From Campylobacterota bacterium (GTDB taxonomy: Bacteria > Campylobacterota > Campylobacteria > Campylobacterales > Sulfurimonadaceae), in contig JAYEMF010000024.1 of NCBI GenBank assembly GCA_034717975.1, positions 1-21,819 of the forward strand: 21,819 bases of DNA, read 5' to 3'. Shown one piece after another: positions 1 through 12,000 of this stretch; position 1 is the first letter of the stretch, and each line of letters opens with the position of its first letter. The position numbers were made by a program.

Positions 1-3000
1 TTACAAAGACAGAAAATGCAATTAACCCATTTGGATGAAAAAGACCGACCAAAAATGGTCGATGTTTCCGAGAAACAAGAGACAACCCGAGTAGCCGTTG
101 CAAGCGGTATTATTGAGATGAGCCCGGACGCCTTTGGTTCCATCGTCAATGAGACTAACAAAAAAGGGCCGGTCCTTCAGACTGCCGTGATCGCTGCCAT
201 TATGGGCACGAAGAAAACAAGTGATCTCATTCCGATGTGCCATCCGCTCAACCTCAGCGGCATCAACTGTGATGTTGATGAGCTCCATGACCTGCCCGGT
301 TTTAAACTGACCGTTACGGCCAAGCTTACCGGTCAGACCGGTGTTGAGATGGAAGCACTGACCGGTGTGAGTATCGGTCTGCTGACTATCTACGATATGG
401 CCAAAGCGATCGACAAAGGGATGGTCATCCGCAATGTCCAGCTGGAGTCCAAAGAAGGGGGTAAAAGTGGTCAATATAAACGAAATTGATCAGAAGCTTG
501 AGCTTGAGTATCCATGCGAATGGCGCTATAAAGTGATTGGCCAGGATATTGAAGTGATCAAAAGTGCAGTAAAAGATGTCATTCTGGAACGTGAACACAA
601 AATTGACTTCTCAAATGCAAGCTGCAGCGGTAAATACTGCAGTATGAATCTGGACCTGCTGGTGCAAAACGAAGATGAACGCCAGTTTATCTACGAAGCG
701 CTAAAAGCACATCAACACATCAAAATGGTTCTATAGATTAAACACGTTACTTGAACGAAGTCCAAGTAACTGCGCTAGCCTCTTCCGAGGAAGAAAACTT
801 AATCAAGGTGTATAAAATGGATTTAGAAAAATTTGAACGTGACATTACGGCCAAATATGCCAAAAAACGCAGTACCGATCTTGACAAGAAAGTAAGTACG
901 CTCTTTGATCACATCAGAAAAGAGTGGGAAGTGGAAGTCGATGATCTGACTCAGGCCGAGCTAAAAGTTGTTGCTACCGCTGTTGTCAATACAGAGACCA
1001 AACAGCTTCACGATGAAGTGCAGGCGATCCTGGCTGAAAAAGAGCGGATCGAACGTGAACTTGACCGAAAACGTGATACCTTGCAAAAGAGTAAATACCA
1101 AACCTTTGATGCCATCGAACATGCCTTTGGTGAAGAGCCCTCACCTCAGATACTGGCCAAACTTCACTATGTCAAACTTCAATCCATCGACCTCTTTGAT
1201 ATGCTCGAAGAGATGGTCGAATCAGCTATTATCACCACCCTTGAAAAAGGGCACGATATCGAAGAGACGATTGAAGAGATTATCAAAGATATTACCTACG
1301 AGACCCTGAGTGAAGGGCCACTAAGCAGTATCCGTATCCGCAAAGTGATCGCTTCAATTGTCAGTACAGCAACCGGAATGGCCGATGCGACACCCAACCG
1401 TGCCGAAATGATCCTTCGCGGCACCCTGCTTGGTATCCGTCTGGGACTGACAAACTTTATCGGTAAGTTTAAAAAACAGCTCCTCTATATGCCGGAAGAG
1501 ACAAAAGCACAGCTGACCGATGGGTTTGAATCACTTCAGGATGAACTGCAGCACGCCGATACACTCTTTACCCAGATCGTGCAAAATGTCGCAGAGAACA
1601 GTTCGAGTGACTCCAAGACAATGCTGAAAAAAATCACTACAGATATCCAGTATGATCTTCAAGAGCTCCTGCAGATCTCCAAAGAGACAGTCGAGATCAT
1701 GCGCAGTCATCTCTCAGACGTCTTCAAGCACAGCAACAAGGTCCTGGCATCTGAGCGTGCCCAAGAAGCCAAACGTATTGGAATTCAGGCGTGGGGTGCT
1801 GCTAAAACAGCAGTCAGCAGTGCCATTAAAACAGCGAAAGATAAAATCGATAAGACTTAGTTAAATTAAATCTTTTTCTCTTCTTTCTTTTTTTGGCACA
1901 AAAAATGAAAGAAGCAAAGAAAAAAACATTTTTTTTACTGCTCGGGAAGGCTACTGGTTAAATCGTATAGAATGGGTTGGGGTCTGAGCAGTCTCTACTG
2001 TCTTTGTATTTGGCTGACTTTTGAGTTTTAATGGCATCACAGCAACAACGTCTGTAGTTGCATAGGCCATGACACTGACTGTCAGCCTGATATTTTTGCA
2101 GCACTTCTAACTGACTGAATCCGCGGAGCCTGTGGTAGCCTTTTCTTTTTGGTTACTTTTTCTTTGGCGACGACAAAGAAAAAGTAACATCCTGGGTTTA
2201 AAAAGTATCTTTAAAATCGGTTAGTATGTACTGTGGATGCAGAGTCACACTCCATCAGCATACTGGCTGCTTCAACATTAAGCTGCCTGGCTGAACGTTT
2301 AAACCAGAAAGTTGCTTTCTCAGTGTTGCGTTCTACAAAATCACCACGGTAATACATCAACCCGATCATAAACTGTGCCTCATCATTACCATCTTCTGCA
2401 AGGCCGATCAAAGCATTATATGCCGCTTCGATCTCATTATCATTATAAAGTGCGATCCCCTCTTCGAATGTTGCCATCACATATCCTTTGCCAGGGTAAA
2501 CATATCACCAAAATCATCTTTGAAAGTTTTACAGCGGTCACAGATCGGATCTCCGCCACGATACGGGTAGGGACATCGGCACTCATGGCACTGCACCATC
2601 TCATAGTGTACCAGCTGTTCACTGCGGTCATAAACGATGTTGATCAGGTCAAAATTCTCTTCGCTCACCACTGCATCGGTTTTACAGATATGGTTACAGA
2701 TGCCGCACCCTACACACTGCCCGGAGGTAAATACGATACCCTGTTTATCCTGAGTTGCGTTTAGGGCATGTGTCGGACAGAACTGAACACACTCCCCGCA
2801 GTTTGTACACGCTTCAAATATGATCGACTTGTTGAAAAAAAGCGGACTGCTCTCTTCAAAACGTGTTGTCGTAAAGCTGCTCATATTCTCTTTCAGCGCA
2901 TTTTTCAGCAGAAGATATTTGAGAGGCAGATCAGTGTCGATACGCTGCAGGTTTTGTACGGTAACAGCAATAGTTTCCTCCTCCTCTGCGACGCTCTCTT

Positions 3001-9000: not shown

Positions 9001-12000
9001 TATTTATAATGCTCTTCTTTGTTCTCTGCATATTCCATATCGGAACGGCGGATCATTTTCTGCGTCTCGACGTCAACCAGGAATGACAAGTCAGTGTACT
9101 GCTTCATAAACTCCGGTTTATAAAGTTTTTGATCAAGGATGACCTGAATAACGCTCATTGCCAGAATATTGTCTGAACCGGCTTTGATCGGTATCCAGAG
9201 ATCTGATGATTTCGCTGTCGCATTGAATTCAGGAGTAATTGTAATGATCTTCGCACCATTATATTTACCTTCCCAAACGAAGTGAGCATCAGGGATACGG
9301 GATACTGAAGGATTACCACCCCACATTACCGCTGTATCCACATTGTACATGAAGTCCCACGTACAACCGAGGTTACCCTCGCCGTATGCGATCGCGGCAC
9401 CGGAGAACATATCTCCAAGATAAGATGACGGATAGATACGGTTGGCACCCAGTTGTGTCGAGAAACGAAGCGGAGCACCACGACGGCCTTCGCTCAGGAG
9501 ACCAGTACCTGCATGTACCATCAGTTTATCCGGTCCGCGTTCCGGATCGGTCAGTGTATCAAAGATGTTTTGACAGATCTTCTCTGCCGCCTCATCCCAG
9601 GAAGCACGTTTCCATTTGCCTTCACCACGTTCACCGACGCGGATCATCGGGTAAAGAATACGATCCTTTTGATACATTACCTGTGAGTGCTGCACCCCTT
9701 TGTTACAGCCGCGAGGGTTGAAATCAGGGATCTTGGCATTGATGACCGGGTAGCGGGCCGACTGGTTCTCACGTGTGATGACACCGTTGTGCGACCACAC
9801 TTCCCAGGCACAGTTACCTTGACAGTTTACACAGTGGTATGCAAACCCGTGTTCCTCTTTTTTACCATAAGTAAAAGAGAACTCATTACGGTACATCTCT
9901 TCCGTATAGTTGGTGTTCGGGTAATCATTTTTACCGTTTTCTACAGAGATTACGTCAGTCTTTGCGAAGAGGCTGCCTTGTGAAGCAACCAACGCAGCTG
10001 TCATACCTGAAACTTTCAGGAAATCTCTACGTTTACTATTCATCACTTTCGTCATTTTATAGCCTCCCCCTTATCGTTTAAGCGGCAACGACATATCATT
10101 GCCCCATTCATCCCAGCTTCCTGAGTATGCTTTAACATTTTTATACCCAAGAAGTTTCAACGCTGTGATGATTTCTGTACTACGTCCGGCACCTACCTGA
10201 CAGTAAGCATAAACCGTCTTGTCCGGTGTGATGTTGTAGTGTGCAAATACTTTTTTCAACTCGTCCGCTTTGCGGAAAGAGAGTTTTCTATCCAGATCAG
10301 AGACCTTTTTCCATTCAAGCAGTGTTGCACCCGGAATATGACCGCCGCGTGCGACATTATCCATCTTACGCTCGCCGATGATCTCGCTCATGGCACGGGT
10401 ATCGACAATAACGTATTTGGAGTCTTCACCATTTTTCAGGATATCTTCCATCGCTGTTTTAACTTCCTCTTTACCTGCAATATAAGAGTAGTCGAGCGCG
10501 TCCTTATTGATATGGTAGGTTTTAGCCTCAACATGTTCATCGCCTTTTACAACGAACAGATTGACAGAGGCCGCCTCAAGACGTGCAGAGATCTCTTTTT
10601 GCCTGATCTTAGAGTCAGCCACAACCTTTTTCAACTCAGCTTCAACAGGAAGTGCTTCACCCGTTTCTTTCGCTTTTTCAAGTGTTTTTTTCGCTTTTTT
10701 GCCTACTTTTTTCTCGGCCTTCAACTCAGCATAGATCCCGTTATAGATCTTCTGTGCCGGGTCAAGCTCCATAATTGCATTACGGCCACCGTTAAGAATC
10801 TTAATGTTTGTATGCCCGTAGCTTTTAAAGAAAAAGTAAACTCCTGTCGCATTCGGTCCCTTGAAATCATCATAAGCAATGATCATCGTCTCATTGCTGA
10901 TCCCCTTTGACCCAATGTAGTGCTCTGCATCGTCAATACAGCGAAACAACGGTTTACAATGCATCTCTCCCGCCAAGTCTGAATGGTGCAGGTGGTGTGC
11001 GTACATCTCTACCGAACCTTTTATATGTCCCAACTGGTAGACATCCGGGTTGTCGCCTGAAACGAACATGACGTTCGGGTTGCCGATCAGCTTGATCGCC
11101 TCTTCGGCAGAGATCAGGATACTGTTGTCTTCGTATCCGTCATCTGCCGCGGCAGGGATAAACATCAGCGCTGCTGCAATACACAGTGCCTTAAGCAATC
11201 TCATCATCTGTGCTCCTTTCTATCGCATTGTATTTGAGCACTTCGGCAGTGCCAAAAATATTCCAAAAAACTACTGGCGCTTAGAGACCGGTGACTAAAT
11301 ACTCATATTAATCGCCAGATAGATTTAGTACAGAATAAATACACCATTATAAACTTACCTGGGGAATATTATTTAAAGTCAGCAAAGATTGGAGCGAAGA
11401 TCGGACTTTTTTTATCTTGGAGCATTACAAATCGAAACACAATTAACATTAATTTTTCTTATATCTTATTGTCCTGTCGCCAAACTTCCAAAAGTTTGAG
11501 AAGAGTAGCTTTGGTACGATAACAAAACGGTAAAATGACAGGAGCTTAAAACGATATGTTTTCTCGACTCCCAAGTACATGGCCGCCCAATGTGCCGAAA
11601 ATCTCAATTGTGGCCAGCGGAGCAGCTTCGATGTTTTCATGGCTAAAGCATGCGGGTGTTTTCTAAATACTGTGCAGCACATAGATGTCGTCACCGCCGC
11701 TGATCTCACCGCCTTCTATAACTTTTGCAAAAATTCCTCTTGCATTTTTCAACAGCTTGGGCAGTTTCGGATGCACCTTTGACAATCCGGCACAGATCAT
11801 ACCGCCATGACTGATTTCTAAAACCGTTTTACCGACTTGAAGCCGCGTACCGACTTTTAAAGAGTATGGATTAAAATCAACCAGGATATTCTCTCCCAAT
11901 TCCCCATGCTCGATCCCTATCCCATTCTCTTTGGTCATCGCATAACTTTTTGTGGATGTGATCAGTATCGATCTGTGTAAGTCTTTCCCATGGTGTTTAT

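Follow-up and report, generated by a model that had tools for sequence, protein, structure and literature searches.

The window, by which we mean the whole 21,819-nt stretch of DNA analysed here, carries on its minus strand a gene cluster, conserved among vent and sediment bacteria, that is predicted to combine an exported molybdenum enzyme with a sulfur-transfer enzyme and a small new protein bearing a reactive cysteine on its flexible tail. We tentatively read this cluster as encoding a sulfur-relay dehydrogenase of the periplasm with a type II DMSO-reductase scaffold, a reading to which we assign a probability of about 0.4. The initial annotation had placed the genes correctly, each part being recovered on the minus strand at the same coordinates, and had missed a 148-aa protein that forms a seventh conserved member. 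The seven genes overlap or are tightly packed, and their order is constant across 79 related loci and 14 loci from other family codes. The alpha and beta genes are separated in the window by a 222-nt spacer that contains hairpins (6930..7151, minus strand), as against about 10-15 nt in most orthologous loci. A promoter-like site (TTGGCA-17-TACAAT; 11227..11255, minus strand) lies 20 nt upstream of the rhodanese start, but is at best a weak candidate promoter, since such sites (22 in the region, 19.6 in shuffled sequence) are no more frequent than in shuffled sequence.

The alpha subunit (7152..10055, minus strand; 967 aa) is the Tat-exported Mo-bisPGD catalytic subunit of a type II DMSO-reductase-family enzyme, with a KRRDFLK twin-arginine signal, an FS0 motif (H74-x3-C78-x3-C82...C117; HCVNCQGNC...C117) and an aspartate, Asp215, which the alignment pairs with PcrA Asp170, a ligand of molybdenum. 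Its best solved relatives are PcrA (E = 1e-108), EbdA (3e-82) and NarG (about 3e-55), in that order. In the tree, alpha falls within the Ddh/Clr/Ser-labelled branch, where its stem has a length of 0.59, and the nearest source-named branch is a JGI-labelled dimethylsulfide dehydrogenase; because the Ddh/Clr/Ser branch holds both dehydrogenases and reductases, this position gives no direction of catalysis. The iron-sulfur beta subunit (5802..6929, minus strand; four clusters) matches PF13247 and exceeds the cut-off of NCBIfam TIGR03478 (513.2 against 480.7); lacking a signal peptide, it is probably exported together with alpha. The gamma subunit (4573..5802, minus strand) combines a Sec signal peptide with an EB_dh haem b domain (PF09459, residues 42-272) and a C-terminal class I cytochrome c domain (PF00034, Cytochrom_C, residues 303-405, CVGCH), and its Lys272 is paired in the alignment with Lys201, a haem ligand of EbdC. 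Counting the sequences that cover each alignment column, the haem b ligands Met143 (74/74) and Lys272 (73/73) and the cytochrome c ligands in CxxCH (72/72) and Met383 (71/71) are invariant, so that the haem b and cytochrome c wiring proposed in the initial annotation proves to be conserved. Met/Lys haem b and His/Met cytochrome c are high-potential centres in characterised relatives; they would suit a system that takes up electrons from a sulfur donor of low potential, and they speak against sulfur reduction.

Upstream of alpha lies the gene for a secreted two-domain rhodanese of 378 aa (10071..11207, minus strand), which carries a signal peptide and is matched by PF00581 in two stretches. Its N-terminal domain is inactive, with Asp in YDDFKGPNA, and the catalytic cysteine sits in the C-terminal domain (YAYCQVGAGRS, loop CQVGAGRS); the two are connected by some 90 residues in which Lys, Glu and Ala abound. 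Among solved structures it is closest to 1uar, 3aax and 3hwi, all of them two-domain thiosulfate sulfurtransferases (E = 2.5e-26 to 4e-24), and the match to ExtH of a selenite/tellurite operon is weak (41 bits, cut-off 200). In line with its earlier description as a fixed partner of the enzyme, the rhodanese lies directly upstream of alpha in all 70 related loci with 1 kb or more of upstream sequence, and the catalytic cysteine is present in 71/71 aligned sequences.

The small secreted protein (4127..4573, minus strand; 148 aa) has a signal peptide (in some orthologues a lipobox) as well as four invariant cysteines, and no Pfam, NCBIfam, SoxY or SoxZ match to it was found. It has a beta-rich core and a flexible tail; its AF2 model has a mean pLDDT of 70, with low confidence in the tail. 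This C-terminal tail is invariant (PPPP-x-KSFFKGCL-COOH): it is complete (...SFFKGCL) in 69 of the 71 aligned sequences, the other two being interrupted by a contig end or N, and is kept in 12 of 14 further genome loci, while TGA replaces the Cys codon in the remaining two. In these two divergent genomes (G036 and G137) the TGA is followed by CTC TGA, and a SECIS-like hairpin begins 11 nt past the UGA (z = -3.1 and -3.4), with compensatory changes at two base pairs between them. Among five genomes tested, SelB exceeded its cut-off in these two only, and the tail TGA pattern occurs in 2/401 genomes, with 0 control matches. Selenocysteine thus replaces the tail cysteine in G036 and G137; since a Cys/Sec swap marks a reactive residue, the tail residue is chemically active, and we propose that the protein is a sulfur carrier. 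The one outgroup locus, L080, whose alpha is 47% identical, has Ser in place of the rhodanese cysteine and no tail; the two were lost together, in this single case.

Downstream of the small protein are a cytoplasmic NarJ/TorD-type assembly chaperone (3546..4136, minus strand; PF02613, E = 1.3e-8; TIGR03482 38, under the cut-off of 152) and a polyferredoxin, also cytoplasmic, that has two dicluster domains as well as a C-terminal CxxC...CxxC (2477..3595, minus strand; 372 aa if it starts at a GTG, 365 aa if at the second internal ATG). No signal peptide or membrane helix was found in the polyferredoxin, which is probably NapF-like, serving in maturation or as an electron protein; most loci that extend far enough keep it downstream of the chaperone. 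A divergent accessory operon (19433..21442, plus strand) encodes an LRV-repeat protein (19433-20038), an unknown 124-aa protein (20035-20409) and an extra Mrp/ApbC-type Fe-S carrier ATPase (20381-21442), all on the plus strand. It lies directly beside the rhodanese in other genomes, and a second Mrp, at 44% identity, is present in genome G000. In each of five same-family genomes without the cluster only an Mrp paralogue of roughly 43% identity was found, and the LRV protein was not found in four of the five. The operon belongs to the same system as the cluster.

Between the rhodanese and the LRV-Mrp genes, at about 11.4-19.0 kb, lies a SoxCDYZ/FccB block, a local low-GC insertion (GC 0.33-0.39, against 0.43-0.49 in the cluster); its 'sulfite dehydrogenase' is SoxC (TIGR04555, 555 bits, cut-off 420). 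A sulfur-oxidising role had originally been argued from these Sox, sulfite dehydrogenase and flavocytochrome c neighbours, an argument that fails: no SoxC, SoxD, SoxY or SoxZ match was found near the cluster in any of 79 related loci, FccB is nearby in 2/79, and 70 of the 114 cluster-bearing genomes have no SoxY match. The distribution first reported for alpha was reproduced exactly, namely 115/401 Campylobacterales genomes, with 21/22, 11/11 and 19/22 in three families and 0/38, 0/30 and 0/38 in three others; one of the 115 (G294) holds a different enzyme of only 34% identity, leaving 114 carriers.

On this basis we propose the following relay. The secreted rhodanese would load its own catalytic cysteine with sulfane sulfur, drawn for instance from thiosulfate or polysulfide, and hand this sulfur to the penultimate residue of the carrier, a Cys (in some lineages Sec) at the tip of its proline-linked tail. 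The tail would then enter the substrate funnel of alpha, where the Asp-ligated Mo-bisPGD would add oxygen to the bound sulfur, and electrons would run from FS0 through the four beta clusters and the Met/Lys haem b of gamma to its fused cytochrome c and the periplasmic cytochrome c pool. Cytoplasmic assembly ahead of Tat export would fall to the chaperone, the polyferredoxin and the LRV/unknown/Mrp-paralogue genes. The initial suggestion of a sulfur relay is strengthened by the previously unnoticed Cys/Sec-tailed protein. The parts with their conservation, export signals and cofactor ligands are established, as is the Cys/Sec exchange; the substrate and the electron direction, like the rhodanese-to-tail transfer and the entry of the tail into the enzyme, are what we infer.

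Several known systems are comparable in part. DdhABC of Rhodovulum sulfidophilum shares the Tat-exported, Asp-ligated alpha with FS0, the four-cluster beta, the EB_dh haem b gamma and the cytochrome c acceptor, but the present alpha scores under the subfamily cut-off (TIGR03479, 736.9 against 984.75) and sits on a long stem, its gamma has a fused cytochrome c, and to our knowledge ddh has no counterparts to the rhodanese, the Cys/Sec-tailed protein, the polyferredoxin or the LRV/Mrp set. The sulfane dehydrogenase SoxCD with its carrier SoxYZ resembles the proposed mechanism in that a periplasmic molybdenum enzyme oxidises sulfur on a carrier's near-C-terminal cysteine and passes electrons to cytochrome c, yet it is non-homologous: SoxC belongs to the SUOX family and the small protein matches neither SoxY nor SoxZ. 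In the same phylum, the periplasmic rhodanese-fold sulfur transferase Sud of Wolinella succinogenes serves a DMSO-reductase-family enzyme, the polysulfide reductase PsrABC; Psr differs in being a quinol-linked reductase with a membrane anchor, in its alpha clade and in lacking a haem b/c subunit or tailed carrier. DsrC places a penultimate cysteine, on a flexible C-terminal arm, in the active site of its partner, the DsrAB sulfite reductase, although it is cytoplasmic and both its fold and its partner are unrelated to those considered here.

The relay is favoured by the tight packing and constant order of the genes, the Cys/Sec exchange, the invariant rhodanese cysteine, the complete tails, the joint loss of cysteine and tail in L080 and the haem ligands, by the nearest named tree branch being dimethylsulfide dehydrogenase, whose chemistry is the addition of oxygen to sulfur, and by the absence of a SUOX-family enzyme from three of five complete carrier genomes without SoxY. 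Against it count the presence of the cluster in only 8/38 genomes of the window's own family, the mixed directions of the Ddh/Clr/Ser branch, the weak ExtH match, the fact that rhodaneses and Cys/Sec thiols handle selenium too, and that we know of no DMSO-reductase-family enzyme acting on a protein-bound substrate. The rhodanese might instead split thiosulfate, with the molybdenum enzyme oxidising the freed sulfite to sulfate and the carrier only accepting and storing or passing on sulfane sulfur. The kinship of the rhodanese with thiosulfate sulfurtransferases and the same three SUOX-less genomes speak for this, as does the fact that oxygen-atom transfer to sulfite is ordinary molybdenum chemistry; we nonetheless consider it rather unlikely, as the carrier's long, invariant, funnel-sized tail and the position of its gene between gamma and the chaperone are left unexplained, and no type II enzyme is known to us to oxidise sulfite. 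Also unlikely is a respiratory reductase of a high-potential chalcogen oxyanion, such as selenate or tellurate, drawing electrons from cytochrome c, in which the rhodanese and the Cys/Sec tail would capture the reactive product. Ser- and Clr-type reductases share alpha's branch, a fused cytochrome c is also found on periplasmic reductases of Campylobacterota, and the ExtH match and a TelA/XpaC pair downstream in one locus (L085) point the same way, but occurrence in 114/401 genomes at 62-90% identity with fixed synteny would be unusual for trace-element respiration, and the 79 + 14 loci showed no other selenium-specific feature.

The oxidation of a free small organosulfur compound such as DMS or a methanethiol-like substrate, as by DdhABC, would suit the ddhA-like nearest labelled branch, the shared subunit set and the cytochrome c acceptor. 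The score under the TIGR03479 cut-off and the long stem make it improbable, and the free methylated sulfide put forward in the initial annotation leaves the invariant rhodanese cysteine and the tail Cys/Sec without a role. NarGHI is a member of the same superfamily and shares the pattern of FS0 and Asp ligand, and its label appears on some members, which JGI names 'nitrate reductase / nitrite oxidoreductase alpha', and on Thiovulum genes called narG and narH in PMC9938260. NarG identity of alpha was rejected on the narG equivalog score (245, cut-off 1084) and on the family's distance in the tree from the NarG rows and the narG-like row P0132; a Tat signal that puts the active site in the periplasm, an EB_dh-type gamma and the lack of any NarI gene seen in the cluster make a Nar-type nitrate reductase very improbable. 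PcrA is the best solved relative of alpha, yet (per)chlorate reduction, already disfavoured, is scarcely credible: chlorite dismutase (PF06778) was found in 0/114 carriers and in 1/401 genomes (G294, on the same contig as its different type II enzyme, 34% identity), and the gate residues Phe164 and Tyr165 of PcrA align with alpha Pro209 and Ser210.

According to PMC9938260, Thiovulum lacks sox, dsr, apr and sulfite dehydrogenase genes and carries a six-gene operon in which rhodanese, 'narG' and 'narH' are accompanied by one gene for a cytochrome c and another without annotation; the rhodanese genes of this operon were expressed about 5-fold over other rhodaneses. Likened by gene description, this nar-labelled operon looks like the one described here and counts in favour of the relay. 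In three family codes the cluster outnumbers SoxY (f4, 21/22 against 5/22; f24, 4/4 against 0/4; f25, 5/6 against 0/6), and named hydrogen oxidisers, a Hydrogenimonas MAG and Nitrosophilus, carry it as well. The system is probably a sulfur-oxidising route apart from the known Sox system and, being near-universal in mostly SoxY-less family codes and present in hydrogen oxidisers, need not serve energy-yielding sulfur oxidation.

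The cluster comprises seven closely packed or overlapping genes on the minus strand, running from position 11207 down to 2477. In this order they encode a two-domain secreted rhodanese, a Tat-exported molybdopterin subunit (alpha), a four-cluster subunit (beta), a gamma subunit in which an EB_dh haem b domain is joined to a class I cytochrome c domain, a secreted protein of 148 aa (4127..4573), a NarJ/TorD-like chaperone and a soluble polyferredoxin. The initial annotation had listed six of these, all of which are indeed present in the window, and had overlooked the gene for the small secreted protein. 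When the window proteins were compared by tblastn with 79 related loci, taken from a scan of species-representative genomes, the same seven-gene order was found to be kept as far as each contig extends. The rhodanese gene lies immediately upstream of alpha in all 70 loci that include some 1 kb or more of upstream sequence, the remaining nine being too short. This comparison also places a divergent operon of LRV, an unknown gene and Mrp (19433..21442, plus strand, in the window) beside the rhodanese gene of the related loci, and DUF6781-DUF493-moaC beside the polyferredoxin gene; since DUF6781 was found in all five cluster-less genomes of the window's family, it is genomic backbone and not part of the system. 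The alpha-beta spacer of the window (6930-7151) is 222 nt long and contains one GC-rich and one terminator-like hairpin; the spacer measures ~10-15 nt in most orthologous loci and ~100 nt in a few (L006, L047 and L051).

Of the 401 Campylobacterales genomes sampled, 115 have alpha at E <= 1e-100, a count identical to the one first reported; one of the 115, genome G294, has a different enzyme that is 34% identical. Within the window's own family the cluster is present in 8 of 38 genomes. In the alpha gene of genome G062 (locus L104, C25:10090-12960), the codon matching Trp580 of the window protein reads TAG, which is probably a pseudogene mutation or a sequencing error, and in genomes G044, G053 and G069 alpha is divided between two frames. 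An apparent in-frame TAA in alpha of genomes G004, G014 and G028 (both copies) was rejected as such, as it is the natural stop codon.

The window's genome has two Mrp/ApbC paralogues, one in the accessory operon (20381-21442) and a second, 44% identical, on another contig (C67:28360-29319). All five cluster-less genomes of the family have only the ~43% Mrp form, and four of them gave no LRV match; the cluster-linked form stands beside the cluster in most related loci of sufficient reach and in most family codes examined, and is a dedicated paralogue. Beyond Mrp, a ~500-aa DUF3373 protein is encoded in three family codes, and recurrent outer neighbours were recorded in four related loci (L081, 14906-19866; L082, 3264-4799; L087, 2713-4230; L088, 14122-15561), with L081 showing a row of DUF302, a DsrE-like protein, a cytochrome c-thioredoxin fusion, an OprD-type porin and a 5'-nucleotidase-C protein. 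More than 20 of the 79 loci, mostly those named Sulfuricurvum, also have a weak DUF302 match (20-28% identity) on the upstream side of Mrp.

The window differs from its relatives in what lies between the rhodanese and LRV genes, which are separated there by 8 kb. This interval holds a low-GC block (11449-18952) with genes for MOSC, an unknown protein of 174 aa, a thioredoxin-like protein, FccB, a double DUF302 protein, soxZ, soxY, soxD and soxC, and its GC content is 0.33-0.39 versus 0.43-0.49 for the cluster. SoxC of the block scores above its equivalog cut-off, SoxY and SoxZ score below theirs, and the single SoxY match in the window's genome is the one in this block. By tblastn, SoxC, SoxD, SoxY and SoxZ were matched in none of the 79 related loci, and FccB was found near the cluster in two (L003 and L055). 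Given the low GC and the lack of SoxC, SoxD, SoxY and SoxZ matches in the related loci, the Sox neighbourhood of the window is a local insertion between the rhodanese gene and the LRV-Mrp operon. The argument from Sox neighbours, on which the initial annotation had drawn, thus falls away; of its interpretation, the transfer of sulfur from the rhodanese to the molybdoenzyme is retained as a proposal, and the link to Sox is not. Genome content leads to the same separation: SoxY was matched in 172 of the 401 genomes, and a cross-tabulation gave 44 genomes with both cluster and SoxY, 70 with the cluster and no SoxY, 128 with SoxY and no cluster, and 159 with neither, so the cluster is independent of Sox. 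Family codes in which the cluster is near-universal are mostly SoxY-less (cluster in 21/22 versus SoxY in 5/22 genomes; 4/4 versus 0/4; 5/6 versus 0/6), and among five complete genomes with the cluster and no SoxY, three contain no SUOX-family enzyme either.

As to its class, alpha carries the Tat signal, FS0 residues and Asp ligand of type II DMSO reductases, namely a KRRDFLK twin-arginine signal, H74-x3-C78-x3-C82...C117, and Asp215 aligned to the molybdenum ligand Asp170 of the solved relative PcrA; the FS0 and Asp-ligand residues are invariant or nearly so in a 25-sequence alignment. Against the NCBIfam models, alpha falls under the TIGR03479 cut-off (736.9 versus 984.75 bits; P0115, a representative of the family, scores 726.2), beta exceeds that of TIGR03478 (513.2 versus 480.7), and gamma and the chaperone stay below those of TIGR03477 (92.2 versus 169.85) and TIGR03482 (38 versus 152.3), respectively; gamma passes the Pfam EB_dh cut-off (96.2 versus 33.3). 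Lys272 of gamma aligns with the haem ligand Lys201 of EbdC, and Met143, Lys272, CxxCH and Met383 are invariant in a 74-sequence alignment among the sequences covering each column.

Several better-known identities were weighed against these data. A NarGHI nitrate reductase was rejected on the score of alpha against the narG equivalog TIGR01580 (245.5 versus 1084.15) and on the presence of the Tat signal; neither the window nor the related loci showed a NarI-like gene. A (per)chlorate reductase was likewise set aside, as chlorite dismutase (PF06778) occurs in none of the 114 cluster-bearing genomes. The single chlorite dismutase among the 401 genomes is that of G294, where it shares a contig with the different enzyme noted above, and it therefore serves as a positive control for the search. 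On this contig (C42) the type II enzyme (2475-5201) and chlorite dismutase (11736-12260) lie ~6.5 kb apart, and the pair is probably a true (per)chlorate reduction island. We also placed alpha in a phylogeny of 46 alpha-type proteins, computed with the quick search of IQ-TREE under LG+G4 and with three NarG rows as the root; its rows were picked from 50%-identity representatives and labelled by NCBIfam scores and source names. The Campylobacterota family and the representative P0125 form a fully supported clade with a stem length of 0.59, whose successive sisters are the representative P0128 (92), a cluster labelled dimethylsulfide dehydrogenase by JGI (99) and a cluster containing a protein that NCBI names chlorate reductase (100), with the Ebd-like, pNar-like and NarG rows falling outside these sister groups. 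By this position, the alpha family branches from within the functionally mixed Ddh/Clr/Ser group as a derived lineage. Any tie to the dimethylsulfide dehydrogenase DdhABC would come from the sister position of the JGI-labelled ddhA cluster, and tree position decides neither the substrate nor the direction of electron flow.

The rhodanese and the small protein offer more specific clues. PF00581 matches the rhodanese in two stretches, and the arrangement is that of a two-domain thiosulfate sulfurtransferase, with an inactive N-terminal domain and the catalytic Cys in the C-terminal loop; this Cys is present in 71 of 71 sequences. The alternative that CQVGAGRS is a 7-residue loop of the Cdc25/arsenate-reductase type was rejected, because the protein aligns without gaps through the loop to 1uar and 3aax, thiosulfate sulfurtransferases with a 6-residue loop. 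The small protein has a signal peptide, a lipobox in some orthologues, four invariant Cys and a C-terminal tail, PPPP-x-KSFFKGCL-COOH, which is whole in 69 of the 71 sequences aligned and cut by a contig end or by N in the remaining two. Searches of Pfam and NCBIfam with the small protein gave no match, even with E values of up to 10, and of its 276 relatives all the named ones are called hypothetical save one, which JGI calls 'thioredoxin-related'. Identity as a SoxY/SoxZ carrier was rejected, as there is no family match and the C-terminus is KGCL, not GGCGG. An AlphaFold model built with 24 sequences (mean pLDDT 70) has a five-stranded beta core and a low-confidence tail; Foldseek returned nothing from the PDB at E <= 0.001, and its weak rows are OB folds, including CcmE, a lead only. 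Longer, fused forms of the small protein were looked for and none was found, which is weak evidence.

The tail was followed into 14 further loci drawn from other family codes, and ...FKGCL is retained in 12. The two most divergent (genomes G137 and G036, alpha 59-60% identical) read ...FKG-TGA-CTC-TGA, with TGA standing at the tail Cys codon, i.e. a UGA two codons before the stop (L090, 8038-8096; L091, 8506-8564). In both, the 6-bp upper stem of a hairpin starts 11 nt past the UGA, and the SECIS-like structure extends across the stop codon as far as the 3' untranslated region; at two of the pairs the two genomes differ by compensatory changes, and folding gave z = -3.1 and -3.4. SelB scores 339.7 and 295.8 in these genomes (cut-off 242.25), the only two above the cut-off among five genomes tested, and a search of 401 genomes for the TGA-tail pattern gave 2 genomes, with 0 hits for a reversed control. 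Together, the hairpin, its compensatory pairs and z-scores, SelB and the rarity of the pattern argue for a real selenocysteine site, and these two small proteins, which show the features of bacterial selenoproteins, are predicted to contain selenocysteine. It is the Cys/Sec swap that points most strongly to a reactive nucleophile at the penultimate position of the tail, and we propose that the small protein belongs to an undescribed carrier family. A five-gene outgroup version from a metagenome (L080, 8925-15465; alpha 47% identical) is without chaperone and polyferredoxin and is directly followed by four tRNA genes. Its rhodanese loop has Ser in place of the catalytic Cys, and the tail is missing from the end of its small protein, so that in this one case the rhodanese Cys and the tail were lost together.

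The rhodanese is of the thiosulfate sulfurtransferase type, and its Cys and the Cys/Sec of the tail are the sole strictly conserved thiols outside cofactor ligands, which leads us to read the system as a relay. A persulfide would be formed on the rhodanese, its sulfur would be handed to the carrier tail, the tail-bound sulfur would be oxidised at the molybdenum site, and the fused cytochrome c would receive the electrons. We put at roughly one in three the probability that this is a Mo-bisPGD enzyme of the DMSO reductase family oxidising sulfane sulfur on the Cys/Sec tip of a new carrier loaded by its own rhodanese. Sulfur reduction by the enzyme is unlikely, because in characterised relatives both the Met/Lys haem b and the His/Met cytochrome c have a high potential. 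The proposed relay has analogues: the overall logic in SoxYZ with SoxCD, a rhodanese serving a DMSO-reductase-family enzyme in Sud with Psr, a penultimate Cys on an arm in DsrC, and the addition of oxygen to a sulfur atom in Ddh. The runs containing the window DNA are four DNA runs of one study, with no RNA run listed.

Public records label the cluster only as 'molybdopterin-dependent oxidoreductase' or as nitrate reductase. Full-text searches returned no description of the cluster from the literature on DMSO-reductase-type enzymes and rhodanese in Sulfurovum, on DMSO-reductase-type enzymes, haem b, dimethylsulfide/ethylbenzene dehydrogenase, chlorate reductase and thiosulfate formation in Sulfurimonas, and on chlorate/selenate reductase in Sulfurospirillum, and there was none in the passages retrieved by term look-up from PMC11237559, PMC4582958, PMC4674564, PMC10045233, PMC10100899, PMC10066037 and PMC12403661. 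Table S2 of the Sulfurovum indicum study (PMC10045233) holds differentially expressed genes only; it contains no EB_dh gene, and its one PF00384-only gene has unrelated neighbours, and the table is uninformative on the cluster. Excerpts of a Thiovulum study describe a six-gene operon of rhodanese genes, 'narG', 'narH', a cytochrome c-related gene and an unannotated gene, interpreted there as a membrane-bound nitrate reductase, in an organism without sox, dsr, apr or sulfite dehydrogenase genes; the rhodanese genes of this operon are expressed ~5-fold above other rhodaneses (PMC9938260). Compared by description only, as given in these excerpts, the operon fits the cluster.

The cluster is common (~28% of sampled Campylobacterales genomes) and highly conserved, and taking it for Nar leads to too many nitrate-reduction calls from metagenomes and conceals what may be a sulfur pathway. 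If the small protein is indeed such a carrier, the cluster would be a second, unrelated instance in which a molybdenum enzyme works on sulfur bound to a carrier, and it would bring in a new family of carriers that switches naturally between Cys and Sec. The question could then be tested directly in cultured organisms with the cluster, such as Sulfurospirillum arcachonense and Nitrosophilus. If the relay reading is true, the cluster would provide a Sox-independent route, which could explain how stored sulfur is disposed of or used in Sox-less Campylobacterota such as Thiovulum.
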